Shown here piece after piece: positions 2,973 through 48,950 of a DNA stretch of 64,000 nt. A model generated the notes under the pieces. It was not told the DNA's origin, made no database searches, and saw only the letters and a list, made by a program, of their open reading frames with translations. The stretch's first letter is position 1. Every line of letters begins with the position of its first letter. The DNA is from Gemmatimonadales bacterium (GTDB taxonomy: Bacteria > Gemmatimonadota > Gemmatimonadetes > Gemmatimonadales > GWC2-71-9), in NCBI GenBank assembly GCA_035488835.1, contig DATHKX010000073.1, positions 30,690-94,689 on the forward strand. Direction: 5' to 3'. The position numbers were made by a program, and so were the translations under genes.

Positions 2973-3517
2973 CGTCTCCCCCGCGAGCTCACCGCCCCGG
3001 CCTGCAGCGTGCGCACGTAATTCACGACGTCCCAGCGATCGGTGCCGCGGACCTTGTCTCCGTAGATGGGCATGAGCCCCCGGCCCATCACCTGGCCGCT
3101 GACGATCACCGCATAGAGGTAGCCGTCCGTGCGCCGGGCGATCGTGTCGTTCACGAGGGAGCGCACCCCGAAGAAGGGCCCCCCCGCTGCTGACGAGATC
3201 GGGCCGTCCCCCCGGCCCGTCGGGCCGTGGCAGACGAGACAATACGTTTCGTAAACGAACCGCCCGCGGTTGATCGACTCCGACGTGCGGGTTCGCGGAT
3301 TCGCGAGCCGGTCGGCCGTCTGCAAGCTCATGAGCGGCTCCCCACCGGTCACCGGCACGGTGCCCGGGACGGGTGGGATGGGCCGCGCGTACGGCTTGAT
3401 GCTGCGCTGATGCCGCATGGTCGAGAACCAGCCGACGCGGTGCACCACGTCGTCCGGGTTGCAGGCGAGGGCGGCGAGAGCGGCGAGCGCGCCGAGCGCG
3501 GCACGCGGTCTACGCAC
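2969..3517 (-). CDS. actE: Alternative complex III subunit ActE, monohaem cytochrome c lipoprotein
   Basis: GTG start preceded by GGAGGAGG. Signal with lipobox-like LAALAALAC. A single CxxCH (CLVCHGPTGRGDG). Position between actD and actF. Confidence 0.8.
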   Translation of the reverse strand: MRRPRAALGALAALAALACNPDDVVHRVGWFSTMRHQRSIKPYARPIPPVPGTVPVTGGEPLMSLQTADRLANPRTRTSESINRGRFVYETYCLVCHGPTGRGDGPISSAAGGPFFGVRSLVNDTIARRTDGYLYAVIVSGQVMGRGLMPIYGDKVRGTDRWDVVNYVRTLQAGAVSSRGRR

Positions 3518-4055
3518 GGCGCACCTCCTCCGCGCCCGCGCCGCGGAGCAACGATTCGACTTGACCCGCCTGCGCCGGCTCGGCCGGGACGAAGATGCCG
3601 AACTTGTCGTTCGTGAAGCGGGGATCGTAGGCCACCGTCCCCAGCCGCCGCGCGGCGAACAGCGCGTTGAACGCGATGCCAAGAATCGTCGAGAGCGCGC
3701 CGAACAGGATCGTCATTTCGAACATGATGACGACGTACGGCGGGATCGAGCCAATCGGTTTGCCGCCCACCACGAGGGGCCAATCGTACGACATGTATAG
3801 CGTGAGCCAGGCGCCGATCGCGCAACCCGCTATCCCGCCGATCAGCGTGAACATCCGAACGGGGCTCACCGGCTGTTCCAGCGCGTCCTCGATCTCGTGC
3901 CGGGGAATCGGCGAGTACACGGTGAAGTCGGTATGCCCCCCCCGGCGCAGCTGGCCGATCGCGTCGACCGTCGCGTCGAGGTGACCGAACACGGCCAGTA
4001 CGCCCGGCGTCGGCGGCGGGTGGAAGATCGCGGCCAGCGGGTTCGCGAGTTTCAC
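3510..4055 (-). CDS. actD: Alternative complex III subunit ActD (small membrane subunit)
   Basis: GTG start forms a GTGA overlap with the actC stop. Sequence VKLANPLAAIF...GVLAVFGHLDATVDAIGQLRRGGH, followed by two TM helices. Operon position supports the call. Confidence 0.72.
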   Translation of the reverse strand: MKLANPLAAIFHPPPTPGVLAVFGHLDATVDAIGQLRRGGHTDFTVYSPIPRHEIEDALEQPVSPVRMFTLIGGIAGCAIGAWLTLYMSYDWPLVVGGKPIGSIPPYVVIMFEMTILFGALSTILGIAFNALFAARRLGTVAYDPRFTNDKFGIFVPAEPAQAGQVESLLRGAGAEEVRRA

Positions 4056-5401
4056 GACGCCCTCGCCTTTCCGCGCTGCGGGGCGGGCAGGACCTCTTTC
4101 ACCTCCGAGATCGACACCGCCGGGAAGTTCTTCACGAACAACAGGAACCACATGAAGAACCAGCCGAAGCTCCCCGCCATGATGCCCCAGTCGGCCCACG
4201 TCGGGTTATAGGTCGCGTTGGCGAACCGCTCGAACGGCTCGCCGGCGAGCGACTCGACGATGATCACGAAGCGTTCGAACCACATCCCGACGTTCACGAA
4301 AATCGAGATCACGAACAGGGCCTGGATGCTGGTCCGGATGTTCTTGCGCCACAACAGCAGGGGCAGGAACGCGTTGCAGATGATCATCGTCCAGCTCGCC
4401 CACCAGAAGGGGCCGAACGCCCGGTACCAGAACGCGGCCCGCTCGGCGGCGTGACCGCCGAACCACGCCGTGAAATACTCCACGCAGTAGGCGTAGCCCA
4501 CGATCATTCCGGTGAGCAGGCAGAGCTTCGCGAGATTCTCGAAGTGATGAACGGTGATGAGGTCTTCCAGGTGAAACAGTTTCCGGATCGGCACGAGGAG
4601 CGTGATGACCATGGCGACGCCCGAGTAGATCGCGCCCGCGACGAAGTACGGGGCGAAGATCGTCGCGTGCCAGCCCGGCACGATGGCCATCGCGAAGTCC
4701 CAGGACACGACGCTGTGCACCGAGAGCACGAGCGGCGTCGCGAGCGCGGCGAGGTAGAGATAGCCGCGGGTGTAGTGCCGCCATTGCTCATTGGTCCCGC
4801 GCCACCCGAGGGAGGTGATCGCGTACAGCTTCTTGCGCCACCCGGTGGCTACGTCGCGCACCGCCGCGATATCGGGGATCAGGCCCATGATCAGGAACAC
4901 CGTCGAGACGGTGAAATAGGTCCCGATCGCGAATTCGTCCCAGATGAGCGGCGATTTGAAGTTGGGCCACAGGCCGCGCTCGTTGGGATACGGGATCAGC
5001 CAGTAGAAGTACCACTGACGGCCGATGTGAATCAGCGGAAACAGGCCGGCCGTCATCACCGCGAAGACCGTCATCGCCTCGGCCGTGCGGTACACGGCAG
5101 TCCGCCAGCCCGAGCGGAACAGGAAGAGGATCGCCGAAATCAGCGTGCCCGAGTGGGCGATGCCCACCCAGAACACGAAGCACGTGATGTAGACCGCCCA
5201 GTACACCGGATGCGAGTAGCCCGCGAGCCCCAGTCCGTAGCGCAGCAGGAACAACAGGCACACGACGCCCACACCGAGCAACGCGACCGCCAGGGCGAGC
5301 AGGGCGAAGTAGCCCTTGCCCGGATTGCCCAGGGTGCGCGCGATGGTGCGCGTGACGAAGTCGTACGTGACGCCGGTGCGCGGGGCGGACGTGTCGGCCA
5401 T
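4052..5401 (-). CDS. actC: Alternative complex III subunit ActC (NrfD/PsrC-like quinol-interacting membrane subunit)
   Basis: 449-aa polytopic protein with NrfD-like character (WAVYITCFVFWVGIAHSGTLISAILF...). It lies immediately downstream of actB. Confidence 0.9.
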   Translation of the reverse strand: MADTSAPRTGVTYDFVTRTIARTLGNPGKGYFALLALAVALLGVGVVCLLFLLRYGLGLAGYSHPVYWAVYITCFVFWVGIAHSGTLISAILFLFRSGWRTAVYRTAEAMTVFAVMTAGLFPLIHIGRQWYFYWLIPYPNERGLWPNFKSPLIWDEFAIGTYFTVSTVFLIMGLIPDIAAVRDVATGWRKKLYAITSLGWRGTNEQWRHYTRGYLYLAALATPLVLSVHSVVSWDFAMAIVPGWHATIFAPYFVAGAIYSGVAMVITLLVPIRKLFHLEDLITVHHFENLAKLCLLTGMIVGYAYCVEYFTAWFGGHAAERAAFWYRAFGPFWWASWTMIICNAFLPLLLWRKNIRTSIQALFVISIFVNVGMWFERFVIIVESLAGEPFERFANATYNPTWADWGIMAGSFGWFFMWFLLFVKNFPAVSISEVKEVLPAPQRGKARAS

Positions 5402-5405
5402 CGCC

Positions 5406-8390
5406 TCAGGCCTCCGCCAGGTCGCCGTGCACGACCTTCGCGAGGTACGTGACGGCCGGTTGGGTGTTCAGTCCCGCGAGGACGTGGTAGCCGCGGGGGT
5501 CCTGGGCAAGCGCCGCGACGCGCGACGTCTTGTCGTGCAAGTCGCCGAACACGATCGCCTCCGACGGACAGGCCTGCGCGCACGAGGGCGTGATGTCGCC
5601 ATCCTGCACGTTGCGATCCTCGAGGCGCGCCCGGTTCTGCGCGCCGCGGATCCGCTGCACACAGAAGGTGCACTTCTCCATCACGCCCTTCTCCCGCACC
5701 GTGACATCCGGGTTGAGCAGCATGTTCAGCGGGTCCGGCCAACTCTCCCACTCGCCGCCTTGCTCCGCGTAGTTGTACCAGTTGAAGTAGCGGACCTTGT
5801 AGGGACAGTTGTTGGCGCAGTAGCGTGTCCCGACGCAGCGATTGTAGACCTGGCCGTTCAGGCCATCGGGCGTGTGGTAAGCGGCGTACACCGGACACAC
5901 CGGCTCACACGGCGCGTTGCCGCACTGCTGGCACAGCATCGGCGTCACCACGGCGCCCACGGGATGACCCTCGTCGCCGCCGGTGTAGTAGCGCTCGATC
6001 CGGAGCCAGCTCATCTGGCGGCGGCGACTCACCAGCTCCTCGCCCACGGTCGCGAGGTTGTTCTCGGCATAGCATGCCGTCACGCAGGCGGAGCAGCCGG
6101 TGCACTTCGCGAGATCGATCGCCATCGCCCAGCGCGGATGCTCGCCGGCGTAGTTCCCGAGCGACGCCTTCTCGTGCTGCGCCTCCGCCCACGCGTCCAG
6201 CGCCTTGCGGGCGTAGGCCGGCGTCTCCTCCTCCGCGAATGGATGGGCTCCGCGCTTCAGCTCCCGCGCTTTGGCGAGCGGCAGTACTTCGATGATGCCC
6301 CGCCCCTGCTCGCGCGCGTCGCCTTCGACCGTCGCGAGGCGGCGATGCTCGCCGGTCTTCTTGACGGTGACGCCGACGGCGAAGGCGCGCCCGCCGAAGT
6401 CCGCGGGCTTGTCGGACAGGAGCTCGAACGCGTTGAACGAGCGATCCTTGGCATAGCGCCCGTACGCCTTGTGACCCTGCCCGCTCGGCATCGCGAGCAC
6501 GTCGGGTCGCACGCCCGGGGTGATCCACACCGGTGCGCGCACGGCGCCGTACTCAGACTCGAGGAGCAGGATGTCCCCATTGGCGAGCTGCGACTTCGCC
6601 GCGGTCTCCGGATGCACCTCCACCCACCCGTGCCACGTGATTTTCGACACCGGGTCTGGGAGCTCCTGCAACCACGGCTTGTTGGCGCCCCGGCCGTCGT
6701 GGAGCGCGATCGACGGGAAGACGATCAGGAGGTGCTGCTCCGATGCGCCTCCCGCGCCGGCCAAGCCGCCGAGCAGCTGCGCGATTCCGGGAACGAGTCG
6801 CGCGCTCTGCGCCGGCGCGTCGGCATACACTCCACCGCGCTGCACGGCGTCGCTCCAGAAGTCGTCGAACCCCCGGCCGCGGCCGAACCGCTCGTGCAGC
6901 GTCCGCCACCGGGTCTGCAGATACTCCTTGAAGCTGCTCGCGCTGCCGGAAACCTCGAGGAGCACGTCGCCGGTGTGGCGGGCGTTGGGAAACACAGGCT
7001 GCATCACCGGCTGTTGCAGCGCATAGACGCCGGCGCGCGGCCGCGAATCGTTCCACTGCTCGAGCGGGTGCAGGTCCGGCAGTACCAGGTCCGAAGCGGC
7101 AGCCGTCTCGTCCAGGTAGGACGAGAAGCTCACGCGGTAGCCCACCCGACCGAGTGCCTGGGAGAAGGCGGCCGGCAGGGAGTGTGCCGGATTCGCGCCA
7201 TGGACCAGCAGGAGTGCGACCTTCCCTGCGCTCATGTCCCCGACCAGGTCGGTCAATTGTTTGAACGATCCGGCCGCTTCGAGGGCGTGGTTGGGTCCGA
7301 ACTTGACGGTTTTCCCCACCTGCCCCGCCACATAGTTCAACAGATTCACCGACGCCACGAGGAGATGGGCGCCGCTCCCGTACTGCGTCGCCACCCCGCC
7401 CGCCACGGCCAGCCCGCCCTTCGACGCGGCAAACTCACGGGACAGGCGCCGGATATCGCTCACGTCCATGCCGAGGAAGGTGGCCGCCTGCTGGGGCGCG
7501 GGAAGCAGCCGCTCGAGGCCGCGCGCGTCCGCCGGCGTGGGGGCCAGCCGCTCCGCCAGGATGACCTGCGCCATGGCGAGGGCCAGCATGAACTCGCTCC
7601 CCGGCTTGGCCGCGATCCACTCGTCCGCACTCATCCCGGTGAGCGACAGGCGCGGGGCGACCGAGACGAATTTGGCCATCGAGCCGTCTCGTCCACCCTC
7701 GAAGGCGTGCGCGCGGGTGAACCCGTTCTGGTAGCCGACCGGCGAGAGCCAGGTCTCCATGAAATCGGCGCCGAAGGACACGATGTAGCGTGCGTTGGCG
7801 AAGTCGTACCAGGGGATCGCCGGGGTGCCGAACGCGAGGCGGTTGCCCTCGCGCAGCGCCTCGAAGGCGAACGGCTCATAGGTCACGTGGCGACCGCCGA
7901 GCTGTTTCATCCAGGTGTCGACGAGCTCGCCGAACGAGCCGCTCTCGAGCCCGGTGACGAACGCGATCCCCTTGCCGCGCGCCTCCTTCAGCTTCGCCTG
8001 CAGCCGACCGATCGCGTCCTCCCAGGAGAGCTTTTGCCACTCACCGCTCGGACCGCGGGCCATGGGATCGGTCACTCGATCGGGATTGTAGAGTCCCTGA
8101 AGCCCCGCCTGGCCGCGCGAGCAGAGCCGCCCCTGGTTGATCGGCGACTCCGGGTTGCCCTCGAGCTTCACCACGCGACCCTCGCGGACCTTGGCGTGCA
8201 ACCCGCAACCGGCCGCGCATTCGCGGCACGTGGTGGCGTAGTATGTGGCGATCCCGGGGACCTGGTTCTCCGGCGGGACCGTGTAGGGGACGAGGTGCTC
8301 GGTCGGCTCGGCGTGGATGTCGCACGCCGACGCCGCCGCGGCGGCGCCGCCCGTCGCGCCCAGGACTGTCAGGAACCGTCTGCGGTCCAT
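5406..8390 (-). CDS. actB: Alternative complex III subunit ActB (molybdopterin-oxidoreductase-like domain fused to a 4Fe-4S ferredoxin domain)
   Basis: Tat signal MDRRRFLTVLGATGGAAAAASA at residue 42 of ORF 5406..8513. N-terminal Cys cluster TCRECAAGCG...CSRG. C-terminal ferredoxin motifs CTGCSACVTAC, CQQCGNAPCEPVCP, CVGTRYCANNCPYK and CTFCVQR. Confidence 0.92.
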   Translation of the reverse strand: MDRRRFLTVLGATGGAAAAASACDIHAEPTEHLVPYTVPPENQVPGIATYYATTCRECAAGCGLHAKVREGRVVKLEGNPESPINQGRLCSRGQAGLQGLYNPDRVTDPMARGPSGEWQKLSWEDAIGRLQAKLKEARGKGIAFVTGLESGSFGELVDTWMKQLGGRHVTYEPFAFEALREGNRLAFGTPAIPWYDFANARYIVSFGADFMETWLSPVGYQNGFTRAHAFEGGRDGSMAKFVSVAPRLSLTGMSADEWIAAKPGSEFMLALAMAQVILAERLAPTPADARGLERLLPAPQQAATFLGMDVSDIRRLSREFAASKGGLAVAGGVATQYGSGAHLLVASVNLLNYVAGQVGKTVKFGPNHALEAAGSFKQLTDLVGDMSAGKVALLLVHGANPAHSLPAAFSQALGRVGYRVSFSSYLDETAAASDLVLPDLHPLEQWNDSRPRAGVYALQQPVMQPVFPNARHTGDVLLEVSGSASSFKEYLQTRWRTLHERFGRGRGFDDFWSDAVQRGGVYADAPAQSARLVPGIAQLLGGLAGAGGASEQHLLIVFPSIALHDGRGANKPWLQELPDPVSKITWHGWVEVHPETAAKSQLANGDILLLESEYGAVRAPVWITPGVRPDVLAMPSGQGHKAYGRYAKDRSFNAFELLSDKPADFGGRAFAVGVTVKKTGEHRRLATVEGDAREQGRGIIEVLPLAKARELKRGAHPFAEEETPAYARKALDAWAEAQHEKASLGNYAGEHPRWAMAIDLAKCTGCSACVTACYAENNLATVGEELVSRRRQMSWLRIERYYTGGDEGHPVGAVVTPMLCQQCGNAPCEPVCPVYAAYHTPDGLNGQVYNRCVGTRYCANNCPYKVRYFNWYNYAEQGGEWESWPDPLNMLLNPDVTVREKGVMEKCTFCVQRIRGAQNRARLEDRNVQDGDITPSCAQACPSEAIVFGDLHDKTSRVAALAQDPRGYHVLAGLNTQPAVTYLAKVVHGDLAEA

Positions 8391-8400
8391 CGGTCGGGCC

Positions 8401-9012
8401 TCAGTAGTGACACACGGTGCAGTCGCGCGTGACGTTGCGCTGCACGTGGCAGTTGACGCACCAGCCCATCGTGAGCGTGGCGACCTGGTATACCTGCGGC
8501 ATGGTGCGCACATCGCCGTGGCAGTTGATGCAGCTCTCGGTGCCCAAAATCTTGATGTGCCGCTGGTGCGGGAAGCGCACGAAGCCCGGAAGTGCGTGCA
8601 CGCGCGTCCACACGGGCGGCTGCTTGGTGGCCCACGCCTCGCGCACCTTCTTGATCTCGGCCATTTCGGCGCTCCGCGCGGCCGAATCCTGCGCGGGCGT
8701 CACGCTCCCGCCGAGCGGCCGCTTTCCCCCGCCAATAATCTGATGACAGCCGAAGCAGGTCTGTACCGCGGGAATCCCCGGCTCGCTCGAGATGGTCACG
8801 GTGTTGTGACAGTACAAGCAGGGGATCTGGTCCTGACCGGCGTGGACGTCGTGACGAAAGAAGATGGGCTGGCGGGGACCCTTGAGCCGCCCCGTGTCGC
8901 TGATGACGGGAGCCTTGTAGCCAGACGCAGAACCGGTTTGTGCCGCGACCGGGAAGGCGATCGACAGTGCGATCGCGACGCCGGCCCCGACCCTCCCACT
9001 CCTCTTCGTCAT
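8401..9012 (-). CDS. actA: Alternative complex III subunit ActA, pentahaem cytochrome c
   Basis: Signal peptide, then five CxxCH motifs: CLYCH, CFGCH, CINCH, CVNCH, CTVCH. First gene of the act operon. Confidence 0.92.
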   Translation of the reverse strand: MTKRSGRVGAGVAIALSIAFPVAAQTGSASGYKAPVISDTGRLKGPRQPIFFRHDVHAGQDQIPCLYCHNTVTISSEPGIPAVQTCFGCHQIIGGGKRPLGGSVTPAQDSAARSAEMAEIKKVREAWATKQPPVWTRVHALPGFVRFPHQRHIKILGTESCINCHGDVRTMPQVYQVATLTMGWCVNCHVQRNVTRDCTVCHY

Positions 9013-9103
9013 CCAGAGCGCTCGATGGCGAATGGTATCGGTCTGTGTTGTGAAACGGCTTGCGGGCGCCGGAATGTAGCGCCAGCGCTAAACGGGGCAC
9101 AAG

Positions 9104-15768: not shown

Positions 15769-16542
15769 ATGCGCACCCCGCCCCCGAACCCCCCGCGCCC
15801 TCCCGGAGGGCCGCCTCCCCGCGGTCCCACGCCCCCTCCCCGCGGCCCCACGCCCCCCCCGCGCGGCCCCACGCCGCCACGCGGTGGCGCGGCGCCCAAA
15901 GCCGGGCCGCCGCCCCGGCCCCCCGTCAAGCCGCCGGCGGCCAAGCGGGCCGCGCGCAAGCTGCCGGGCTGGCTCGCCCGCGCACAGCGTCTGCTGCTGC
16001 AGCCGACGCAGGAGTGGGCAACGATCGCCGGCGAGTTCACGAGCGCCGGCCCGATCTATATGCGCTACCTCGTTCCCATGGCGGCCATCGGCCCCATAGC
16101 TGCAACCATCGGGGGGGTCGTGTTCGGCGAGCGTGGCAGCCTGCTGACGTTCGGGACCGTCCCGATGAATGCCGGGACCGCGGTACAGGCGGGGGTCCTC
16201 GAGTACGTGCTCAATCTCGTGGGCGTATACGTGCTGGCGATGGCGATCGACGTGATCGCGGGGTCGGTCGGGGGACAGCGGAACCGCGTGCAGGCCCTGA
16301 AGGTCGCGGCGTACGCAAGTACACCGTACTGGCTGGCCAGCGCATTCGCGCTGTTCCCCAGGATCGAGCCGCTGGGAATGCTGGTCGGGCTGTACAGCGT
16401 GCGGCTGTTCGCGCTTGGCCTTGCGCCTTGCATGAAGGTGCCCCGCGACAAGGCGGCTGCCTTAACACTCCTGACGAGCATTGCGGCGGCGTTGATAGTG
16501 CTGGTGATTACCGCGATCATCACCCGCCTGGTCGTGGCTTAA
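15769..16542 (+). CDS. Yip1-domain (YohC/DUF1282-like) polytopic membrane protein with a proline-rich N-terminal tail
   Basis: ATG at residue 90 of ORF 15502..16542. After the Pro-rich tail comes LLLQPTQEWATIAGE, followed by about 5 TM helices. Confidence 0.7.
   Translation: MRTPPPNPPRPPGGPPPRGPTPPPRGPTPPPRGPTPPRGGAAPKAGPPPRPPVKPPAAKRAARKLPGWLARAQRLLLQPTQEWATIAGEFTSAGPIYMRYLVPMAAIGPIAATIGGVVFGERGSLLTFGTVPMNAGTAVQAGVLEYVLNLVGVYVLAMAIDVIAGSVGGQRNRVQALKVAAYASTPYWLASAFALFPRIEPLGMLVGLYSVRLFALGLAPCMKVPRDKAAALTLLTSIAAALIVLVITAIITRLVVA
15814..15876 (+). repeat. Three tandem 21-bp repeats encoding (P)PRGPTP
   Basis: Units: cctccccgcggtcccacgccc / cctccccgcggccccacgccc / cccccgcgcggccccacgccg. They lie in frame within the Yip1 gene. 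Confidence 0.9.
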
Positions 16543-17336
16543 CGCCGCTCCCGGAACGCTGTGCGCGTCACCCCGCCCTCGCGGCCGAGGAGCCACGCGG
16601 CGATGGTGAGTCCTACGATCGCGAACAGGGCGAGCGCGGCGCAGTCGAGCGGCACGGGGAGCTCGCCGCCGTAGCCCGCTCCCGCCCACGCGCCGAGCAG
16701 AGCGTGCTTCAGCAGGTCCACGCCGTACGCGAGGGGGTTCGCGTAGGCGACGGCGCGCAACACGGGACCGAGATGCCGCACGGGATATAAGGCACCCGAC
16801 AAAAAGAGCATCGGGAAGACCACGAAGTTCATGACGCCCGCGAAGTTTTCGATCGACCGGATACTCGCCGCGATTACCACACCGAGCGCGCCCAGCGCCA
16901 GCCCTGAGAGGACGACGGCGACGAGCCCGAGCAGCGCCCCCGCGAGCGTGGGTCGCAGGTGGACCAGCGGGAGCAGCAGCCCCGCCACCACGATTACCTG
17001 AGCGGTAGCGAGCAGCGTCGCGCCCAAGGCCTTGCCCAACGCGACCGTGCTGCGCCGGACCGGCGCGACCAGCATCATGCGGAGCACTCCGGCCTCGCGG
17101 TCGGTCACGGTGGAGAGGGCCGCGAGCAACGAGCCGAACATCACCACCATGCCGAGCAGGCCGGGGGCCATGTAGACGCGGTAGTCGATCTCGTTCCGCC
17201 CCGCGAACACGCCGGCGAACCCCGCGCCGGCAAACACCAGCCACACGAACGGCCGCCCGATGCTCGCCAGCACCCGGCCGCGCTGCCGCAGGAACCGTAG
17301 GAACTCGCGTGCGACGATCCCGTACACCGCGCGCAT
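16539..17336 (-). CDS. ABC-2 type transporter permease
   Basis: ATG (MRAVYGIVAREFLRFLRQ...) at residue 78 of ORF 16539..17567. Six predicted TM helices, ABC-2 exporter-like. It starts 2 nt after the ATPase stop. Confidence 0.8.
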   Translation of the reverse strand: MRAVYGIVAREFLRFLRQRGRVLASIGRPFVWLVFAGAGFAGVFAGRNEIDYRVYMAPGLLGMVVMFGSLLAALSTVTDREAGVLRMMLVAPVRRSTVALGKALGATLLATAQVIVVAGLLLPLVHLRPTLAGALLGLVAVVLSGLALGALGVVIAASIRSIENFAGVMNFVVFPMLFLSGALYPVRHLGPVLRAVAYANPLAYGVDLLKHALLGAWAGAGYGGELPVPLDCAALALFAIVGLTIAAWLLGREGGVTRTAFRERR

Positions 17337-17338
17337 GC

Positions 17339-18091
17339 TCAACCGCCGTCCGCTTCGGCCAGAGGATGGCCGGTGTGCGCGAGGAACACCTCCTCGAGCG
17401 AGCCGACTCCCGCCGCCTGCTTGAGCGCAGCCGGCGTACCGAGGGCGACGAGTCGTCCGTGATCCAACACGGCGACGCGGTCGCACGGCTCGGCCTCCTC
17501 GACGTAGTGCGTCGTCAGGAGCACGGTGAGGCCGGACGCCGCGCGCAGGCCGCGGATCCGGTCCCACAGCGAGCGGCGCGCGCGCGGGTCGAGCCCGGCC
17601 GTGGGCTCGTCGAGAAACAGGATGCGCGGCTCGTGCAGGATGCCCCGAGCGATGTCGGCGGCGCGCCGCATGCCCCCGGAGAGCGTCCGCACCGAGTCAT
17701 CGCGTCGCTCGAGCAGCTCGAACTGGCGCAACAGCGCGTCGATCCGCGGCCGGGAGGCGCGGTCGGGAAGGCTCCACAGGCGCGCGGCGAAACGCAGGTT
17801 TTCCGCGACCGTGAGGTCGCGATCGAGGGTGGTGTCCTGGAACACGAGCCCGATGCTGCGCCGCACGGCGAGGCCGTCCTGCACGACGTCGTGTCCCGCG
17901 ACGCGCGCCGAGCCGCGCGAGGGCGCAAGCAGCGTCGCGAGCAGGTGAACGGTGGTGGTTTTCCCGGCGCCGTTCGGCCCGAGCAGGCCGAAGAACTCCC
18001 CGTCCCTGACCTCGAGGTCGAGCCGATCGAGCGCGCGGAGCGCCCCGAAGTCCTTGCCGAGTCCGCGGGCGACGATCGCGGCGGCGGTCAT
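17339..18091 (-). CDS. ABC transporter ATP-binding protein (DrrA/NodI-like exporter class)
   Basis: Walker A GPNGAGKTT, signature LSGGMRR, Walker B LFLDEPT. The ATG forms an ATGA overlap with the pqqE stop (18088). Confidence 0.9.
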   Translation of the reverse strand: MTAAAIVARGLGKDFGALRALDRLDLEVRDGEFFGLLGPNGAGKTTTVHLLATLLAPSRGSARVAGHDVVQDGLAVRRSIGLVFQDTTLDRDLTVAENLRFAARLWSLPDRASRPRIDALLRQFELLERRDDSVRTLSGGMRRAADIARGILHEPRILFLDEPTAGLDPRARRSLWDRIRGLRAASGLTVLLTTHYVEEAEPCDRVAVLDHGRLVALGTPAALKQAAGVGSLEEVFLAHTGHPLAEADGG

Positions 18092-19200
18092 CCCTTCGCG
18101 GCGAGCGCGCGCGACGCCGGTGCCGCACGATAGGTCCACTCGGCGGCTTCCGCCGCACGCTCCACCTCGGCGACCGCAGCATCGATCAGGTGGCGGTGGG
18201 GCGACAGCGAGCACACCGGATCGGTCAGGCCCGCGTCGCCTGCCACCAGGAACGCCTGGCAGCGGCAGCCCCCGAAGTCCTGGGTTTTGCGCGGACACGA
18301 CCGGCAGGGCTCGGGCATCCAGGCATCACCCCGGAAGCGCGTGAACGCCTCCGAGTGCTCCCAGATCCACTCGAGCGCGTGTTCGCGCACGTTCTCGAAC
18401 GTGAGGGTCGTGATCCGACCGGCCGCGTGGCACGGCCAGACCTCCCCCGCCGGCGTCACGGTCATGTAGGCGCGCGCCCAGCCGCCCATGCACGGCTTGG
18501 GGTACTGCTCGTAGTAGTCGGGGAGCACCCATACGATCTCGAGCTTCGTCCCGAGTCGCGCGCGCTCGCGCTGGACCACGCGCCAGGCCTCATCGAGCTG
18601 AGCCTTGGTTGGCATCAGGGCATCGCGGTTGTGGAGCGCCCAGCCGTAGAACTGCGTGTTGGCGAGCTCGATGCGCTCGGCGCCGAGCGACTCGGCGAGC
18701 CCGATGAGCGCTGCGACCTGATGCAGGTTGCGGCGGTGCAGCACGACGTTGACGGTGAGCGGGAAGCCCAACTCTCGCGTGTAGCGGTAGGCGGCGATCT
18801 TATCGTTGTACGCTGCCGTCCCCGCGACCGCATCCGAGAGCTCGGCGTCCGCCCCCTGAATGCTGATCTGCACGTGGTCGAGCCCCGCCGCTTTCAGCGC
18901 CGCAAGGCGCTCCTTGGTGAGCCGGTAGGCGGATGTGATGAGGGACGTATAGAGACCGAGCCCGTGCGCCTGACGGACCAGCTCCTCCAAATCGGCGCGC
19001 AGGGTCGGCTCGCCACCCGAGAGCCCGAGCTGTAGCACACCCAGCGCCTTGGCTTCGCGGAACACACGGCACCACTCGTCGGTCGAGAGCTCGCGCTTGA
19101 AGCGCGGGCCCGCGAAGTCGAGCGGATTCGAGCAGTAGGGACACTGCAGCGGACACTTGTAGGTCAGCTCGGCCAGGAGCCACAGCGGCTTAGGGTCCAT
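18088..19200 (-). CDS. pqqE: PQQ biosynthesis radical-SAM protein PqqE
   Basis: Starts MDPKPLWLLAELTYKCPLQCPYCSNP (CX3CX2C). C-terminal SPASM-type cysteines are present. Operon position supports the call. Confidence 0.95.
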   Translation of the reverse strand: MDPKPLWLLAELTYKCPLQCPYCSNPLDFAGPRFKRELSTDEWCRVFREAKALGVLQLGLSGGEPTLRADLEELVRQAHGLGLYTSLITSAYRLTKERLAALKAAGLDHVQISIQGADAELSDAVAGTAAYNDKIAAYRYTRELGFPLTVNVVLHRRNLHQVAALIGLAESLGAERIELANTQFYGWALHNRDALMPTKAQLDEAWRVVQRERARLGTKLEIVWVLPDYYEQYPKPCMGGWARAYMTVTPAGEVWPCHAAGRITTLTFENVREHALEWIWEHSEAFTRFRGDAWMPEPCRSCPRKTQDFGGCRCQAFLVAGDAGLTDPVCSLSPHRHLIDAAVAEVERAAEAAEWTYRAAPASRALAAKG

Positions 19201-19474
19201 ACGTCACCAGCCCCTTCGCGGCCAGTCGATCGAGAAACGTCGTAACGTCGCGCTCGACTCCTCCCCCCGGGGAGCCGTACCGCTGCTCCAGCGCTGCCAC
19301 GACGTCAGCAACCGAGCGGACGCCGTCACACAGCACGAGGATCTCTGCGCCGGTCGGATTCAGCGCCACGAGCCCTTCGGGATAGAGGAGGACGTCCCGC
19401 CCGCGCACGTCATCGTGCTGGAGGCGCGCCTTCGGGTGGAGGCGCGGCACGGTCGGCCGTCCTGCCGCGGTCAC
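19190..19474 (-). CDS. pqqD: PQQ biosynthesis peptide chaperone PqqD
   Basis: GTG start forms a GTGA overlap with the pqqC stop. Sequence: LLYPEGLVALNPTGAEILVLCDGVRSVADVVAALEQRY. Confidence 0.85.
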   Translation of the reverse strand: MTAAGRPTVPRLHPKARLQHDDVRGRDVLLYPEGLVALNPTGAEILVLCDGVRSVADVVAALEQRYGSPGGGVERDVTTFLDRLAAKGLVTYGP

Positions 19475-20184
19475 GGCGCGGTCCCGGGGATGGGCCCCCG
19501 CTCCACGGCGTCGAGCAGGCACCACAGCACGTCGCACTTGAACTCGAGGGCGGCGACGGCCCGCTCTTGCTCCTCCGGCGTGCGGAACCGCTCCGTCACG
19601 AGGCCGAGGGCGTACTCCGCATCACGCGGCGCCTGGGTGAGCCGGTTCTTGAAGTACTGCAGCCCCGCGGGATCCACCCACTTGTAGTGGCTCAGCATCG
19701 CCGACAGCCGCTCCTGAACGATCAGCGGCGCGAACATTTCGGTGAGCGAGGCCGCCACCGCCTCGAGCCAAGGCCGGAACCGGCAGAAGCTCACGTACGC
19801 GTCCACGGCGAAGCGCACGCCGGGCAAAAGAAAACGCTGGCCGACCAGATCCTCGCGCTTCACGCCCATCGCCTCGCCCAGCCGCAGCCACGCCTCGATG
19901 CCGCCTTCCTCCCCCGGCCGACCATCGTGATCGATGATCCGCTGGATCCACTGCTGGCGCACCTCCCGCTCGGGGCAGCTCGACAGGATCAGGGCATCCT
20001 TGATGGGGATGCTGATCTGATAGTAGAAGCGGTTCGCCACCCACAGCTGCAGCTCCTGGCGCGACAGCTCGCCCCGGTGCATCCGCTGGTTGAACGGGTG
20101 GAGGTGGTGGTAGCGGCGCTCCAGTACACCCCGCAGACGGCCGACCAGTCCGTCCACCGCCGGTGAGCCTACCTCTACGCTCAC
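19471..20184 (-). CDS. pqqC: Pyrroloquinoline-quinone synthase PqqC
   Basis: HPFNQRMHRGELSRQELQLWVANRFYYQ is the PqqC family signature region. GTG start forms a GTGA overlap with the pqqB stop. Confidence 0.95.
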   Translation of the reverse strand: MSVEVGSPAVDGLVGRLRGVLERRYHHLHPFNQRMHRGELSRQELQLWVANRFYYQISIPIKDALILSSCPEREVRQQWIQRIIDHDGRPGEEGGIEAWLRLGEAMGVKREDLVGQRFLLPGVRFAVDAYVSFCRFRPWLEAVAASLTEMFAPLIVQERLSAMLSHYKWVDPAGLQYFKNRLTQAPRDAEYALGLVTERFRTPEEQERAVAALEFKCDVLWCLLDAVERGPIPGTAP

Positions 20185-21095
20185 AGCTCGAACTCCATCG
20201 CGTCCTCTCCTACCTCGATGCCCGCCGTCTCGACCCGCGCCCGCTCCGCGGAGCTGCGACACAGGATCGGATTGGTGTTGTTGATGTGGACGAGCACCAC
20301 CCGCTTGGCGTCGAGGCGCGGCAGCAGCTCCAGGCTGCCACCGGGGCCGCCAACCGGGAGATGGCCCATCTCGCGCGCCGTCGGCGCGTCGGCTCCCCCG
20401 CCGGCCGCACCGAGCTCGTCGTCCGACCAGAACGTGCCGTCGAACAACAGGAGATCCGCTCCGCCGGCGACTCGCCGCACGGCGTCATCCATCGCCCCGG
20501 CCGTCGGGACGTAGGCGAGCGTTCCGCCGGTGCGCTCGTCCGTGAGCCGCAGGCCGACGTCGAAGGCCTGAGCCGGCGCGGCGCGGGCGTAGCGCGGCGG
20601 GCGCCGGGCCACCGCCGTCGCTGAGCAGCAGATCCCGAGTGGGCTGCCAGTGCGGTCGGTGAGGGCGATCGGACGGCCCTCCTCGAGGGCCCGCGCGTCG
20701 ACACCTGAGTAGGCGGAGAGCACACGATAAAGCGGCCACTCGTCGCCGAGCAGCGCCGTCACGCCCGCCGGGGCGTACACCGGCAGCCGGTCGGCGCTCT
20801 CCCGCAGCAACAGGAGGCCGAGAGTGTGGTCGATCTCGCCATCGGTAAGCACGACCGCCCGGACGGGCGTCGCGCGGGAGCCGGAAGGGGGCCAGAGAGA
20901 GCGATGGGCAGCGAGCTGGATGCGAAGATCGGGCGAGGCATTCAGGAGAACCCAGCGCGCGCCGTCGGCGCTGACCGCCACCGACGACTGAGTCCGGCCG
21001 CGGCCGTCCTGTCGGGCTTCCGTGCAGTTACGGCAGCCGCAATTCCATTGCGGGACTCCACCACCCGCCGCCGAGCCGAGGATGATAACGCGCAT
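20181..21095 (-). CDS. pqqB: PQQ biosynthesis protein PqqB (metallo-beta-lactamase fold)
   Basis: Starts MRVIILGSAAGGGVPQWNCGCRNC, a typical PqqB N-terminus. Confidence 0.95.
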   Translation of the reverse strand: MRVIILGSAAGGGVPQWNCGCRNCTEARQDGRGRTQSSVAVSADGARWVLLNASPDLRIQLAAHRSLWPPSGSRATPVRAVVLTDGEIDHTLGLLLLRESADRLPVYAPAGVTALLGDEWPLYRVLSAYSGVDARALEEGRPIALTDRTGSPLGICCSATAVARRPPRYARAAPAQAFDVGLRLTDERTGGTLAYVPTAGAMDDAVRRVAGGADLLLFDGTFWSDDELGAAGGGADAPTAREMGHLPVGGPGGSLELLPRLDAKRVVLVHINNTNPILCRSSAERARVETAGIEVGEDAMEFEL

Positions 21096-21103
21096 TGAAC
21101 AAA

Positions 21104-21128
21104 GGGGCCGGGTTCGTCACCCGGCCCC
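21104..21128 (-). promoter_or_regulatory. Perfect 9-bp stem-loop in the pqqA-pqqB spacer
   Basis: GGGGCCGGG-ttcgtca-CCCGGCCCC, located between the pqqA stop (21152) and the pqqB start (21095). Confidence 0.55.
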
Positions 21129-21151
21129 TCGTTAAGCCGTATCCGCTTGGT

Positions 21152-21226
21152 TCAGGCGTTGCCGGCGTACGCGCCGACTTCCATCCCCAGCTCCACGACC
21201 TCAAATTCAGGCTTCGTCCACGTCAT
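21152..21226 (-). CDS. pqqA: PQQ precursor peptide PqqA (24 aa)
   Basis: Not in the ORF track. The minus strand reads GGAGGAAGAGCCA ATG ACG TGG ACG AAG CCT GAA TTT GAG GTC GTG GAG CTG GGG ATG GAA GTC GGC GCG TAC GCC GGC AAC GCC TGA, giving MTWTKPEFEVVELGMEVGAYAGNA. It has the conserved WxKP and E-x3-Y. Confidence 0.9.
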   Translation of the reverse strand: MTWTKPEFEVVELGMEVGAYAGNA

Positions 21227-21285
21227 TGGCTCTTCCTCCGGGGTAAATCGTGGTCAACCACTACGAGCGCTCGCCATCACACCTA

Positions 21286-21301
21286 CGCACGTGACGTGCC
21301 A
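21286..21301 (-). promoter_or_regulatory. Candidate sigma-54 (-24/-12) promoter of pqqA
   Basis: Minus strand reads TGGCACgtcacGTGCg against the consensus TGGCAC-N5-TTGCW. The GG and GC are correctly spaced. It lies 60 nt upstream of the pqqA ATG. Confidence 0.5.
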
Positions 21302-21406
21302 CCTGTCGGCCGCAAGTTCGTAAAACCCAACGCACACGGATGTCGACACTTAACGCGTACACCCGCCAGTGCTGTCCCCCGCTGACGAGGCAGTGCGGTG
21401 AGTCAT

Positions 21407-21425
21407 TTCACCCAACGTGGGTGAA
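21407..21425. promoter_or_regulatory. Perfect palindrome TTCACCCA-ACG-TGGGTGAA: candidate enhancer-binding-protein site or terminator hairpin
   Basis: 8+3+8 inverted repeat about 105-125 nt upstream of the sigma-54-like element. An extra CACCCAAC half-site lies at 21428-21435. The palindrome begins 18 nt past the response-regulator stop. Confidence 0.4.
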
Positions 21426-21442
21426 TACACCCAACCCGTGCA

Positions 21443-22846
21443 TCAAGGCTGCAGGCCGAACTTCTTGAGACGATAGCGCAGCGTGTCGCGCGAGATTCCG
21501 AGACGCTGCGCGGCCTTCGTTTGGTTTCCGCCGGCCTCGCGCATCGCGCGCTCGATCATGGCCTTCTCCCAGTGAGCGAGATCGACGCCCTGTGGCGGCA
21601 GCGCCGGTGCACCGGCGGCCGCGTCGGCTTCGGCCGGCGGGTTGTGGTGCGCCGCCACCGCGTTGTGGTCGGGGCTCGTGAGCGAGAGGTGCTCCACGTC
21701 CAGCATCGGACCCCGGCTCCACAGCACCGCCCGCTCGATCACGTGGCTGAGCTCGCGGACGTTGCCGGGCCACGGATACGACAGCAACATCTCGCGCGCC
21801 GGCGCGCTGATCTCTCGCACCGTCTTTCCGTACTTGGCATTGAGGAGTCGCAAGTAGTGGTCGGTGAGAAGCAGCACGTCCTCACCCCGCTCCCGCAACG
21901 GCGGCATGACCAGGACGATCACCGCGAGGCGGAAATAGAGATCGCGGCGGAATCGCTCACGGCTCGCTTCGCGCTCGAGATCGCGGTTCGTCGCAGCGAT
22001 AATGCGCACATCGACCTTGCGCTCGCGGACACTCCCGACGCGCCGCACCGTCCGCTCCTCGATGGCCCGCAGCAGCTTGCCCTGCACCGAGAGATCCACG
22101 TCGCCGATCTCGTCGAGGAACAGAAACCCACCCTCGGCGGCTTCGACCAGACCGGTCTTCGACTCCTTGGCATCCGTGAACGCGCCGCGCTCGTAGCCGA
22201 ACAGCTCCGCCTCCATGAGGTTTGCCGGGAGGGCCGTACAGTTGACCTCGATGAACGGCTTGGATGCGCGAGGGCCGGCGGCGTGGATGGCGTGCGCGAG
22301 GATACCCTTCCCGGTGCCCGTCTCGCCCGTCAGCAGCACAGGCGGCGTGTCCTCCAGCGCGGCGATCTGGCGCGCCCGCTCGAGCACCGCATGGACGGCG
22401 GGCGACTCGCCCACCATGGTCGCAAACCCGACGTCCCGCGTCGCGCGGCGGCGGTAGTACGACAGCTCCTGCTTGAGCAGTCGGTTCTCGCGAGCGCGGT
22501 CGGCCAGGAGCTTCAGCTCCTCGAGGTCCACCGGCTTTTTGACGTAGTCGAAGGCGCCGAGCTTGACGGCCTCGACGGCGCCCTCGATGGAGCCGTAGGC
22601 CGTCAGCATGATCACGGGGAGCACGGGATCGAACTCGCGGATCCGCTTCAGGAGATCGATGCCGCTCATCCCGGGGAGCCGCACGTCCGCAAAGACGACA
22701 TCCGGCTGGAGGCTTTCGAGCAGCTCGAGCGCCTTCTCGCCGGAGGCCGCCACCTCAGCTTCGAAGCCGTGGTCCGCCAGGAACGCCTTGGCCGACCGGG
22801 CCAGGGTCTGCTCGTCATCCACGATCAGCACGGTCGAGCCGTTCAT
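21443..22846 (-). CDS. Sigma-54-dependent response regulator (NtrC family: REC, AAA+ and Fis-type HTH domains)
   Basis: Receiver domain VLIVDDE...DVVFADVRLPGMSG. Walker A GETGTGKG. Sigma-54 contact loop GAFTDA. Walker B FLDEIG. C-terminal HTH AAQRLGISRDTLRYRLKKFGL. Confidence 0.92.
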   Translation of the reverse strand: MNGSTVLIVDDEQTLARSAKAFLADHGFEAEVAASGEKALELLESLQPDVVFADVRLPGMSGIDLLKRIREFDPVLPVIMLTAYGSIEGAVEAVKLGAFDYVKKPVDLEELKLLADRARENRLLKQELSYYRRRATRDVGFATMVGESPAVHAVLERARQIAALEDTPPVLLTGETGTGKGILAHAIHAAGPRASKPFIEVNCTALPANLMEAELFGYERGAFTDAKESKTGLVEAAEGGFLFLDEIGDVDLSVQGKLLRAIEERTVRRVGSVRERKVDVRIIAATNRDLEREASRERFRRDLYFRLAVIVLVMPPLRERGEDVLLLTDHYLRLLNAKYGKTVREISAPAREMLLSYPWPGNVRELSHVIERAVLWSRGPMLDVEHLSLTSPDHNAVAAHHNPPAEADAAAGAPALPPQGVDLAHWEKAMIERAMREAGGNQTKAAQRLGISRDTLRYRLKKFGLQP

Positions 22847-24327
22847 GAGAGACTCCGCACTGGCGTCGGCGCGGTGTCGCCACTGGCAACGGGCAGCCAG
22901 ATGCGCACCGTCGTGCCGTGGCCGATCCGACTGGCGATCTCCAGGCGGCCGCCGGTTTCCTCGACGTAGCGCTTCGCGATGGCCAGGCCCAGGCCCGTTC
23001 CCTCGGGTCGGGTCGTGAAGAACGGCTCACACAAATTGGGCAGGATCTCCGCCGCAATTCCCGGCCCCGAATCGGTGATCTCGAGCAACACCCCGTCGGC
23101 GCCTCCCTCACCGTTCTGAGATTGGGCCGCGATCTCGAGCCGTCCACCGTCCGACATGGCGTCGAGCGCGTTGGAAATGATCTCGGTCAACGCCTGCTCC
23201 AACCGCATAGGATCGACCCGGATTTCGCGCAGTGTCGGGGGAACGGCCAGCCCCAGCTCGACGCGGCGTTGGCCCAGTAGCTCGGTGAAACCGGAGAGCG
23301 CGCCGTCCACGAGTGATCGTACACTCTCCCGCAGCGGACGGAAGGGAGCGGGGCGCGAGAAGGTCAACAGGTGGGCGATCCGGTTATCGAGACGATCGAC
23401 CTGCTCGATGATCGCGTTCAGCGGTTCGCGCGCGGCGGGGCCCTCGACGCGGTGCTGCGCAAGCTGCGCCGCAGCACGCAGGCTCGCGAGTGGATTCCGG
23501 AGGCCGTGGGCCACCCCCGCGGCCATCTGGCCGATGGAGGCCAGCTTCTCGGACTGTACCAGCTGCGCGTGGGATTGGCGGAGCTGCTCGGTCATCTGCG
23601 CGAAGGCGCGTGCCAGGTCGCCGATCTCGTCCGCGGAGCGCGGCTCGATCGCGTGGTCCAGGTCGCCCGCGCCGACGACGGCCATCGCGTGCCGCAGCTC
23701 GTTGAGGGGACGCGCCAGGCTGCGGGAGATGATCCACGACGCGGTCAAACCGGCAACCAGGGCGAGCAGGATGATCGACCAGAGAACGCGTCGCTCCGTC
23801 GCCACAATGGTAGCCACCTGGGAAAACGCGCGCTGCACGCTGTACTCGCGGGCCTGGCGGTAGATCTCCCGGTTCACCTCCGCCAGGGCGGGCTGCAGGC
23901 GCTCCACGAGCTCTTGCCGTGCGGTGAGGTAGGCCGCCTCGCGCTGCCCGGAGTCGTACAGCTTGAACACGCGTCCCGCGACGTCTCGGATGTCGGTCTC
24001 GATTTTGCGAACGCCGTCCGCGAGCTTCAGATCCCCGGAGGGAAGTCCCGCCGCCCAACGATCAAGCCAGAAGTCCACGACCTGTTCGGTGAGTGGGAAT
24101 TCCTTCTTGGCCGCGGGATCTCCGCTCAAGTAGCGCCAGACCACCTGGGTCTGGTTGAACATCGCGTCTTCGACTTCGGCGTACGTGCGGGAGTGGGCGA
24201 GGCGCTGGCCGAGCGCCTCGAGCGTCCCGCCCTCGAGCGCGTTGGTGCGAATCGCCTGGATTCCCACGAACAGCGTGGGGAGGACCATGAGGGAGAAGCC
24301 GAGCAGCAGCTTGCGTTGGAGGGTCAC
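22843..24327 (-). CDS. Sensor histidine kinase (two TM helices, HAMP, HisKA, HATPase)
   Basis: H-box AAGVAHGLRNPLASL. G-boxes DSGPGI and GTGLGLAIAKR. Its stop forms an ATGA overlap with the regulator start. Confidence 0.87.
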   Translation of the reverse strand: MTLQRKLLLGFSLMVLPTLFVGIQAIRTNALEGGTLEALGQRLAHSRTYAEVEDAMFNQTQVVWRYLSGDPAAKKEFPLTEQVVDFWLDRWAAGLPSGDLKLADGVRKIETDIRDVAGRVFKLYDSGQREAAYLTARQELVERLQPALAEVNREIYRQAREYSVQRAFSQVATIVATERRVLWSIILLALVAGLTASWIISRSLARPLNELRHAMAVVGAGDLDHAIEPRSADEIGDLARAFAQMTEQLRQSHAQLVQSEKLASIGQMAAGVAHGLRNPLASLRAAAQLAQHRVEGPAAREPLNAIIEQVDRLDNRIAHLLTFSRPAPFRPLRESVRSLVDGALSGFTELLGQRRVELGLAVPPTLREIRVDPMRLEQALTEIISNALDAMSDGGRLEIAAQSQNGEGGADGVLLEITDSGPGIAAEILPNLCEPFFTTRPEGTGLGLAIAKRYVEETGGRLEIASRIGHGTTVRIWLPVASGDTAPTPVRSLS

Positions 24328-48576: not shown

Positions 48577-48578
48577 GG

Positions 48579-48950
48579 TCAGGCCGGCTTCTTCGGCTCC
48601 GGTGGCGTCGTGGCCTGCTTCATCGCGGCATCGAGCTGCATGTAGAGGCTATTCACCGAATCGGCGAGCGCGCGGACCTTCATATTGATTCCACCGCCGC
48701 GGCCGGCCATGACCGACATGGTGCCGGCGACGTCGGCGATCGTCCCGACGTTCGCGGTGAGCGCCCGTTGCCGCATCTGGGATGCTTCGTTTGCGATCTT
48801 CTCGCTCAGCTGCTGAATGGTGCGCGTCTGGCCAGCCCGGTTCCCCTCGAGCTCGGTGACGAGGCGGTTCAGGTGATCGGCGGCGCGCCGAAACTCCTCG
48901 ATCTCCTCGATGCGCCGGAGCTGGTCGGCGGTGAGCTTCTGGTGCGCCAC
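48579..48950 (-). CDS. Hypothetical coiled-coil protein (123 aa)
   Basis: ORF with heptad-like charged helices (LRRIEEIEEFRRAADHLNRLVTELE). Its stop lies 2 nt before the ABC ATPase start. No family recognised. Confidence 0.5.
   Translation of the reverse strand: MAHQKLTADQLRRIEEIEEFRRAADHLNRLVTELEGNRAGQTRTIQQLSEKIANEASQMRQRALTANVGTIADVAGTMSVMAGRGGGINMKVRALADSVNSLYMQLDAAMKQATTPPEPKKPA

Follow-up and report, generated by a model that had tools for sequence, protein, structure and literature searches.

An ABC-2 exporter gene pair overlapping pqqE is a candidate for pyrroloquinoline quinone export in Gemmatimonadales

INTRODUCTION

Pyrroloquinoline quinone (PQQ) is a planar tricarboxylate of 330 Da that is made in the cytoplasm and acts outside it. 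Here, we examine a candidate for its step across the cytoplasmic membrane, a two-gene ATP-binding cassette (ABC) transporter that directly follows pqqE in a 64,000-nucleotide (nt) stretch of DNA from a Gemmatimonadales soil bacterium (phylum Gemmatimonadota; contig DATHKX010000073.1 of assembly GCA_035488835.1, positions 30,690 to 94,689 of the forward strand). We refer to this whole stretch, which has a G+C content of 70%, as the window. An earlier, sequence-only reading of the window had taken the gene pair to be an exporter of PQQ or of a PqqA-derived product and had held that the export route of PQQ is not established. The literature that we searched agrees with it in naming no exporter (PMC12124388, PMC7391723). 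PQQ is described there as a molecule that "is transported to the periplasm," with no more said on the route (PMC12124388), and older accounts attribute its export to the soluble protein PqqB (PMC4263746, PMC11503474). The sole PQQ transporter with direct evidence is PqqU (YncD), a TonB-dependent PQQ importer of the outer membrane (PMC12124388). It is unlike the window pump in that it works in the opposite direction, in the other membrane, and is an unrelated protein.

Three described systems come closer. DrrAB, which confers daunorubicin resistance on Streptomyces, likewise consists of one ATPase gene and one gene for a six-helix ABC-2 permease, with no binding protein; the window pump differs in lacking the C-terminal domain of about 60 amino acids (aa) of the ATPase and in sitting in a cofactor operon, not an antibiotic cluster. 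The second system is PedA1A2BC of Pseudomonas putida, needed for lanthanide-dependent growth (PMC6839425, PMC7391723), with its counterpart LutAEF of Methylorubrum extorquens, needed for lanthanide uptake into the cytoplasm (PMC6839425, PMC7391723; reviewed in PMC12997753). In PedBC and LutEF, too, a short ATPase (∼240 aa) goes together with an ABC-2 permease, and both are genomically tied to PQQ systems. They are interpreted as importers and lie in a dehydrogenase cluster (PMC6839425, PMC7391723), whereas the window pump is of the exporter type and lies after pqqE. Finally, M. extorquens AM1 has META1p2359, which has been speculated to export PQQ (PMC7391723). Like the window pump, it is an ABC transporter without a binding protein that was proposed for PQQ export on indirect grounds; unlike it, and compared by description only, META1p2359 has fused ATPase and membrane domains and was picked out through a methanol-growth phenotype instead of through pqq linkage.

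RESULTS

An ABC exporter gene pair is coupled to pqqE

Direct reading of the window showed the gene order pqqA-B-C-D-E, ABC ATPase, ABC-2 permease, all on the minus strand. The gene pqqE (18088-19200), encoding a radical S-adenosylmethionine (SAM)/SPASM enzyme, ends in AAG GGA TGA, and the ATG of the ATPase gene (17339-18091) lies within the same ATGA (18088-18091). The ATPase gene ends in GGT TGA, followed by the two nucleotides GC and the ATG of the permease gene (16539-17336), so that only a 2-nt gap separates the two pump genes. Both junctions are as the sequence-only reading had given them, and the junctions together with the NCBIfam scores below bear out its operon order with translational coupling. 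That reading had also named a separate promoter or terminator between pqqE and the ATPase gene as a finding that would refute it. The 4-nt overlap leaves no space for either at this junction, and a sequence scan from pqqE to the end of the permease gene found no sigma-70-like promoter and no terminator-like site.

The biosynthesis genes are well identified. PqqB (20181-21095; TIGR02108, 352.6 bits against a cut-off of 245), PqqC (19471-20184, GTG start; TIGR02111, 316.5 against 240), PqqD (19190-19474, GTG start; TIGR03859, 82.1 against 46) and PqqE (TIGR02109, 530.5 against 381) each score above the NCBIfam equivalog cut-off, and pqqA (21152-21226) encodes a 24-aa precursor peptide, MTWTKPEFEVVELGMEVGAYAGNA, in which the conserved Glu-x3-Tyr pair is present. 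The pqqB/pqqC and pqqC/pqqD junctions are both GTGA overlaps, and pqqD and pqqE overlap by 11 nt. At the other end, a convergent gene for a Yip1-family membrane protein (15769-16542, plus strand) shares the stop of the permease gene in a common TTAA, which sets the 3′ limit of the operon at the permease.

The pump is DrrAB-like and falls between two curated families

The ATPase (250 aa) has intact Walker A (GPNGAGKT), LSGG and Walker B (ILFLDE) motifs and matches PF00005 with 109.5 bits. Its top NCBIfam match is drrA (TIGR01188), at 287 bits, below the cut-off of 312.45 for DrrAB membership; the second is PQQ_ABC_ATP (TIGR03864, "PQQ-dependent alcohol dehydrogenase system"), at 244.9 bits against a cut-off of 302. 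The alignment covers only positions 1 to 218 of the 302 in the drrA profile because the ATPase is without the C-terminal domain of about 60 aa: its gene stops just past the LEEVFL motif. Relatives of 304 to 326 aa in the divergent Gemmatimonadota genome L009, in Actinomycetota and in a second Gemmatimonadales clade carry the DrrA-type C-terminal domain, and the linked loci L011 (315 bits) and L023 (318 bits) pass the drrA cut-off of 312. The window's clade has lost this domain.

The permease (265 aa) is an ABC-2, or type V, membrane protein (Pfam ABC2_membrane, PF01061, 127 bits). Its two best NCBIfam matches are nearly tied, with PedC (TIGR03861) at 164.9 bits and drrB (TIGR01247) at 159.4 bits, under cut-offs of 241 and 223, respectively. 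The window permease also weakly resembles SagH, the permease encoded in the streptolysin S cluster (E = 1.5e-13). An AlphaFold model (predicted local distance difference test score, pLDDT, 82; predicted template modelling score, pTM, 0.83) shows the type V fold with six helices; the solved structures closest to it (Foldseek probability, 1.00; TM-score, 0.6 to 0.7) are KpsM, ABCG2, ABCG25, ABCH-9C and NosY; a profile search of PDB sequences with the permease recovered the same solved exporters weakly. These type V exporters (KpsMT, ABCG2, ABCG25, ABCH-9C, NosFY) are only 13 to 23% identical to the permease, and the similarity defines the class of the fold, not the substrate. ABCG2 and ABCG25 export small anionic organic molecules. 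No gene for a substrate-binding protein was found in the window operon or in the operons of the relatives examined. The sequence-only reading had placed the ATPase in the DrrA/NodI exporter class, which agrees with drrA as its best match and with the lack of a binding-protein gene. By profile scores, the pump is best described as a DrrAB-like type V exporter that lies between two curated families and, by their thresholds, inside neither.

The permease belongs to a large family, with 7078 representative proteins matching at E ≤ 0.001, and its closest named relatives (64 to 94% identical) come from Gemmatimonadota/Gemmatimonadales metagenome-assembled genomes. Arg160 is enriched in pqq-linked permeases (87% versus 3%), but related sequences dominate that set and the list of enriched residues is mostly hydrophobic; for these reasons, we draw no anion-binding cavity from it.

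The pump is related to the PedBC/LutEF systems and differs from them

The sequence-only reading had contrasted canonical pqq operons, as lacking a transporter, with that of the window. Most pqq operons are indeed without this pump, but the statement overlooks the ABC-2 family TIGR03864/TIGR03861 (PedBC/LutEF), which sometimes lies beside pqq genes. The pqq-linked permeases have residues in common with PedC-type permeases, such as some in the stretch ENFAGxMNFVxFP, that are missing from other DrrB-like homologues. Genuine proteobacterial PedBC/LutEF proteins score far higher than the window pump (permeases, 342 to 415 bits on TIGR03861; ATPases, 292 to 297 bits). The window ATPase is 46 to 63% identical to the DrrA-like ATPases of other loci and 37 to 46% identical to those of the Ped type, and the Ped-type clade forms a separate long branch in the neighbor-joining tree. 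In Enterovibrio (L036), the binding protein TIGR03863 (426 bits) and the beta-propeller protein TIGR03866 (507 bits) adjoin the Ped-type pair; genes of these types are absent from the window operon, and no such domain was found among the window open reading frames (ORFs) scanned. The window pump is a relative of PedBC/LutEF and not a member.

PedBC-type pairs stand beside pqq operons in several Proteobacteria (L039, L059, L069, L076 and others), in a different gene order. In the alphaproteobacterial loci L039 (L039:9246-14002) and L059, the pair is directly 5′ of pqqB-E, and the permease reaches 342 bits on TIGR03861. A scan of neighboring genes in L039 found no adjoining binding-protein gene.

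The linkage to pqqE is conserved and the pump co-diverges with PqqE

Conservation of the linkage beyond this genome had been set beforehand as a test that could refute the proposal; we found it in at least two phyla. A scan with a four-sequence permease alignment, limited to one genome per species, gave 80 loci from many phyla, which were then searched with the window Pqq proteins. The order pqqE-ATPase-permease was present in every close Gemmatimonadota locus (L001 to L005, L013, L015, L017, L020 and L026), in the divergent Gemmatimonadota genome L009 (permease 51% identical), and in four Actinomycetota genomes (L011, the Solirubrobacterales L023 and L024, and L025). In each of these loci but L011, which has a 20-nt gap, pqqE and the ATPase gene overlap by 4 nt. 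In one group of relatives, represented by L001, pqqB (L001:3031-3948) lies upstream of a kinase/regulator gene pair, leaving pqqA-C-D-E-ATPase-permease, and the pump keeps to pqqE although pqqB has moved away. PqqA peptides with the motif W-x-K-P...E-x3-Y were found 5′ of pqqB (5′ of pqqC in L001) in 12 of 12 linked loci checked. Recurrence across phyla with the same overlaps indicates an arrangement beyond chance. No pqq genes lay within 10 kb of similarly distant permease homologues from Thermodesulfobacteriota ("Deltaproteobacteria"), Nitrospirota, Dormibacterota and further groups, which makes the linkage specific to this pump group; the neighbors of these homologues that were examined (PhoBR, rsmI, a transposase) were uninformative.

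The same question was approached from PqqE. A metagenome scan with the PqqE of L009 as a query returned 80 pqqE loci (47 to 64% identity), of which 60 had at least 1 kb of downstream sequence and were informative. The ATPase and permease genes directly follow pqqE in 16 of these 60. Across 20 positive metagenome loci, the junction is a 4-nt overlap in 11, an 11-nt overlap in 1, a gap of 3 to 16 nt in 6, and a gap of 148 or 411 nt in the other 2. Positives in unlabelled lineages include L102, L105, L114, L135, L153 and L158. L095, L102, L105 and L114 belong to a second, abundant Gemmatimonadales clade whose permease is 41% identical to that of the window. On the long contigs L166 and L167 from this clade, a sensor kinase and a sigma-54 regulator precede pqqA-B-C-D-E, ATPase (307 to 314 aa) and permease; the overlaps are as in the window, and the downstream genes are different. 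The group of L153, L156 and L161 may belong to Acidobacteriota, tentatively Pyrinomonadaceae, judging only by the names of neighbor-gene homologues.

Pairwise divergence across 29 linked loci correlates strongly between PqqE and the ATPase (r = 0.90) and between PqqE and the permease (r = 0.94), with none of 2,000 Mantel permutations as high. Among 12 deep representatives, the correlations are 0.78 and 0.86, respectively. Pump and pqqE are therefore inherited as one module. Flanking genes and regulators vary among the linked loci while the pump stays with pqqE.

Two variants of the permease gene were observed. In Solirubrobacterales-type Actinomycetota, a fused permease of two tandem ABC-2 halves (∼570 aa, a built-in heterodimer) accompanies a single ATPase gene (L023:9965-11683, L024:9977-11680, L025:9977-11680 and L132:4755-6458). 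In L153 (L153:2491-4650), the permease frame runs without a stop into a gene for a TolC/CzcC-like outer-membrane protein, homologues of which are often fused to, or precede, a resistance-nodulation-division (RND) pump. A protein search with the L153 frame returned mainly TolC proteins. The frame may represent a true fusion, one that is open by chance, or an error in the sequence.

Other membrane protein genes follow pqqE in other lineages

Genes for small membrane proteins of the MntP family (PF02659) overlap or abut the pqqE stop in L118 (L118:3873-4412), L123 (L123:7119-7658), L134 (L134:5114-5644) and L119 (L119:7142-7720). The overlap is 4 nt in L118, L123 and L134, and MntP-family genes also lie near pqqE in L109, L115, L128 and L108. 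These proteins, from unlabelled lineages, keep both LSLDN motifs intact and are the second kind of membrane protein whose gene is repeatedly paired with pqqE. A CaCA-family (Na_Ca_ex) gene lies 14 nt after pqqE in L100 (L100:3495-4553) and another lies near pqqE on the opposite strand in L140. In L110, a gene for a TonB-dependent receptor overlaps the pqqE stop by 4 nt (L110:7095-9179).

Upstream elements suggest regulated expression

A sigma-54-type promoter-like element, TGGCACGTCACGTGCG (TGGCACG-N4-GTGC; 21286-21301, minus strand), lies about 60 nt 5′ of the pqqA start codon. It is the sole match in the window, with 0.03 expected by chance, and it stands just 3′ of a kinase/regulator gene pair on the same strand. 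The sigma-54-dependent response regulator (21443-22846; Pfam Response_reg, Sigma54_activat and HTH_8) is encoded directly 5′ of pqqA and overlaps the gene for a HAMP/HisKA sensor histidine kinase (22843-24327; Pfam HAMP, HisKA and HATPase_c). Both Gemmatimonadales clades have the pair ahead of pqq (L001, L166 and L167), and L004 and L005 are without it.

Folding revealed that pqqA and pqqB are separated by a GC-rich hairpin of 12 bp with UUUGUU after it (21102-21130, minus strand). The 60-nt stretch that contains it folds with −31.6 kcal/mol (z = −5.1), and none of 200 shuffled sequences was equally stable. A strict terminator scan of positions 16000 to 21700 made no call, this hairpin included. 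The hairpin is likely a partial terminator or attenuator.

Other genes in the window

The gene that converges on the operon is syntenic with genes annotated as PF04893 Yip1 in relatives and encodes a protein with a proline-rich N terminus; its 5′ part (15769-16000, plus strand) encodes the proline-rich repeat PPRGPTPPPRGPTPPPRGPTPP. A second, unrelated pair of ABC ATPase and ABC-2 permease genes (permease ORF of ∼430 aa) lies at 46611-48648 on the minus strand. Genes of the alternative complex III type occupy 3510-9087 on the minus strand (ActD, an NrfD-like membrane subunit, a molybdopterin/4Fe-4S subunit and multihaem cytochromes) and are syntenic with the pqq locus in the relatives L001 and L004.

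DISCUSSION

The best reading of this locus, to which we give a probability of roughly 0.45, is that the pump is a candidate exporter of PQQ out of the cytoplasm. It is favored by the linkage to pqqE, by co-divergence and by the exporter class of the pump. The pump would be a homodimeric type V (ABC-2) exporter of two 250-aa ATPases and two 265-aa six-helix permeases working without a binding protein. The whole unit would probably be switched on from the sigma-54-type promoter by the adjacent two-component system, with the hairpin after pqqA probably keeping the precursor peptide in excess, and the pump genes would be transcribed on one mRNA with those for PqqB to PqqE. Translation of the ATPase would probably proceed by termination at pqqE and reinitiation at the overlapping ATG, so that the pump would be present whenever PQQ is made. 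Finished PQQ would then be moved from the cytoplasm, its place of synthesis by PqqC, to the outer side of the cytoplasmic membrane, where it is bound by quinoproteins. PQQ must cross this membrane, and a neighboring gene in the Solirubrobacterales locus L024 fits such a route: divergent from the pqq/pump operon, it encodes a PQQ-dependent dehydrogenase that bears a lipoprotein signal (…TLAAC; L024:3357-5000, minus strand). The permease gene of L011 is followed by one for a cytochrome c (L011:6174-6911).

Several observations weigh against PQQ export by this pump. One close relative is without the pump: in L086 (L086:2828-4691; metagenome contig Ga0070713_100014399), where PqqE is 90% identical and pqqB-E are intact, the ATPase and permease genes are absent, the convergent Yip1 gene ends 4 nt past the pqqE stop, and the 1.55 kb of the pump is cleanly missing. 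Given the distribution of the pump, this state is most simply read as a deletion, and it shows that the pump is dispensable to the operon. Likewise, 44 of the 60 informative pqqE loci and the classical proteobacterial operons are without such a pump, which means that PQQ can exit the cytoplasm by another way. Genes of cation-exporter types or, in one locus, for a TonB-dependent receptor occupy the slot after pqqE in other lineages; the top NCBIfam match of the permease, PedC, belongs to a lanthanide-uptake system; and a search for quinoprotein genes in the 64-kb window found none. In neighbor-joining trees of the ATPase, the permease and both together, the pqq-linked pumps adjoin at the base of the DrrB-like group, and a single clade of them is unsupported (3 to 17 of 100 bootstraps).

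Some of these points feed directly into other explanations. If the pump, like PedBC/LutEF, acted not on PQQ but on the lanthanide or Ca2+ that quinoproteins need or on a chelated metal, then the PedC match and the PedC-type residues confined to pqq-linked permeases among the DrrB-like homologues would be accounted for. Mutants in PedA1A2BC and LutAEF are impaired in growth that depends on lanthanides and in lanthanide uptake (PMC6839425, PMC7391723), PedBC-type pairs adjoin pqq operons in several Proteobacteria, and MntP- and CaCA-family cation-exporter types fill the post-pqqE slot elsewhere. Against this, both pump proteins fall well short of the Ped/Lut cut-offs (ATPase, 245 versus 302 bits; permease, 165 versus 241) that genuine members approach or pass at 292 to 415 bits, the operon has neither the binding protein TIGR03863 nor the beta-propeller TIGR03866, the ATPase is nearer to DrrA-type exporters than to Ped-type ATPases, and the Ped-type clade sits on a separate long branch. 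We therefore regard an action on metals as distinctly unlikely. The origin of PQQ raises a different prospect, as the cofactor derives from a ribosomal peptide through a radical SAM enzyme and clusters for peptide natural products commonly end in ABC-2 exporter or immunity genes: the pump might expel remnants of the PqqA peptide or a reactive quinone intermediate, not the finished cofactor, and so clear by-products or protect the cell. The weak likeness of the permease to SagH is in line with this. So is an M19 dipeptidase gene that overlaps the end of the fused permease gene in L024 (L024:11644-12675), which points to peptide processing in the same unit; this membrane dipeptidase may be a PqqA-processing peptidase. 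Peptide remnants are normally degraded within the cytoplasm, however, toxicity is not indicated, and most PQQ producers, and likewise the close relative L086, do without the pump, which makes by-product export very unlikely in our view.

The pump may also owe its place to history, as a general efflux pump, DrrAB-like and of the drug or lipid type, that an ancestor fixed behind pqqE and that has traveled with the operon since without acting on PQQ. The size and versatility of the family (7078 representative matches), the close homologues elsewhere without a cofactor context, the dispensability of the pump in L086 and the occurrence of a second ABC-2 pair elsewhere in the window (46611-48648) would all suit such a passenger. 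A neutral passenger is, however, hard to reconcile with codon overlaps that at least two phyla and several deep lineages have kept, with co-divergence with PqqE (r = 0.9) and with a linkage that persists despite changing flanks, regulators and pqqB position, and we consider it unlikely.

For PQQ export, the genes found after pqqE elsewhere can be read in two ways. A recurring transporter in this slot fits a "missing export step" that is filled by differing proteins; metal supply to quinoproteins fits equally, because MntP and CaCA are cation-exporter families. Our broader proposal, held somewhat more tentatively than PQQ export as such, is that the pump may be the missing PQQ exporter, an old component of the pqq module that is inherited along with it in Gemmatimonadota, Actinomycetota and further soil lineages and whose operon position is taken in other bacteria by unrelated membrane proteins. 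It is much less likely that the entire branch of ABC-2 transporters shared with PedBC/LutEF has PQQ or PQQ-metal complexes as its substrates, as the kinship of the pump with those permeases hints.

We found no description of the pqqE-pump linkage in the searchable literature, a search that did not reach the pqq-neighborhood surveys PMC3334298 and PMC7736144. The parts are ordinary; what appears to be new is a DrrAB-like exporter recruited into a cofactor biosynthesis operon and co-evolving with it. The pump offers a concrete two-gene candidate for the step by which PQQ crosses the cytoplasmic membrane, one that is coupled at the codon level, co-inherited and accompanied by a natural pump-less variant. 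Were PQQ export by the pump refuted, the conserved linkage would still call for an explanation, such as metal handling for quinoproteins. If it holds true, a gap in a textbook cofactor pathway would be closed, the engineering of PQQ overproduction and secretion would be aided, and the gene pair would flag, at the level of the genome, which members of abundant and poorly cultured soil phyla produce PQQ.

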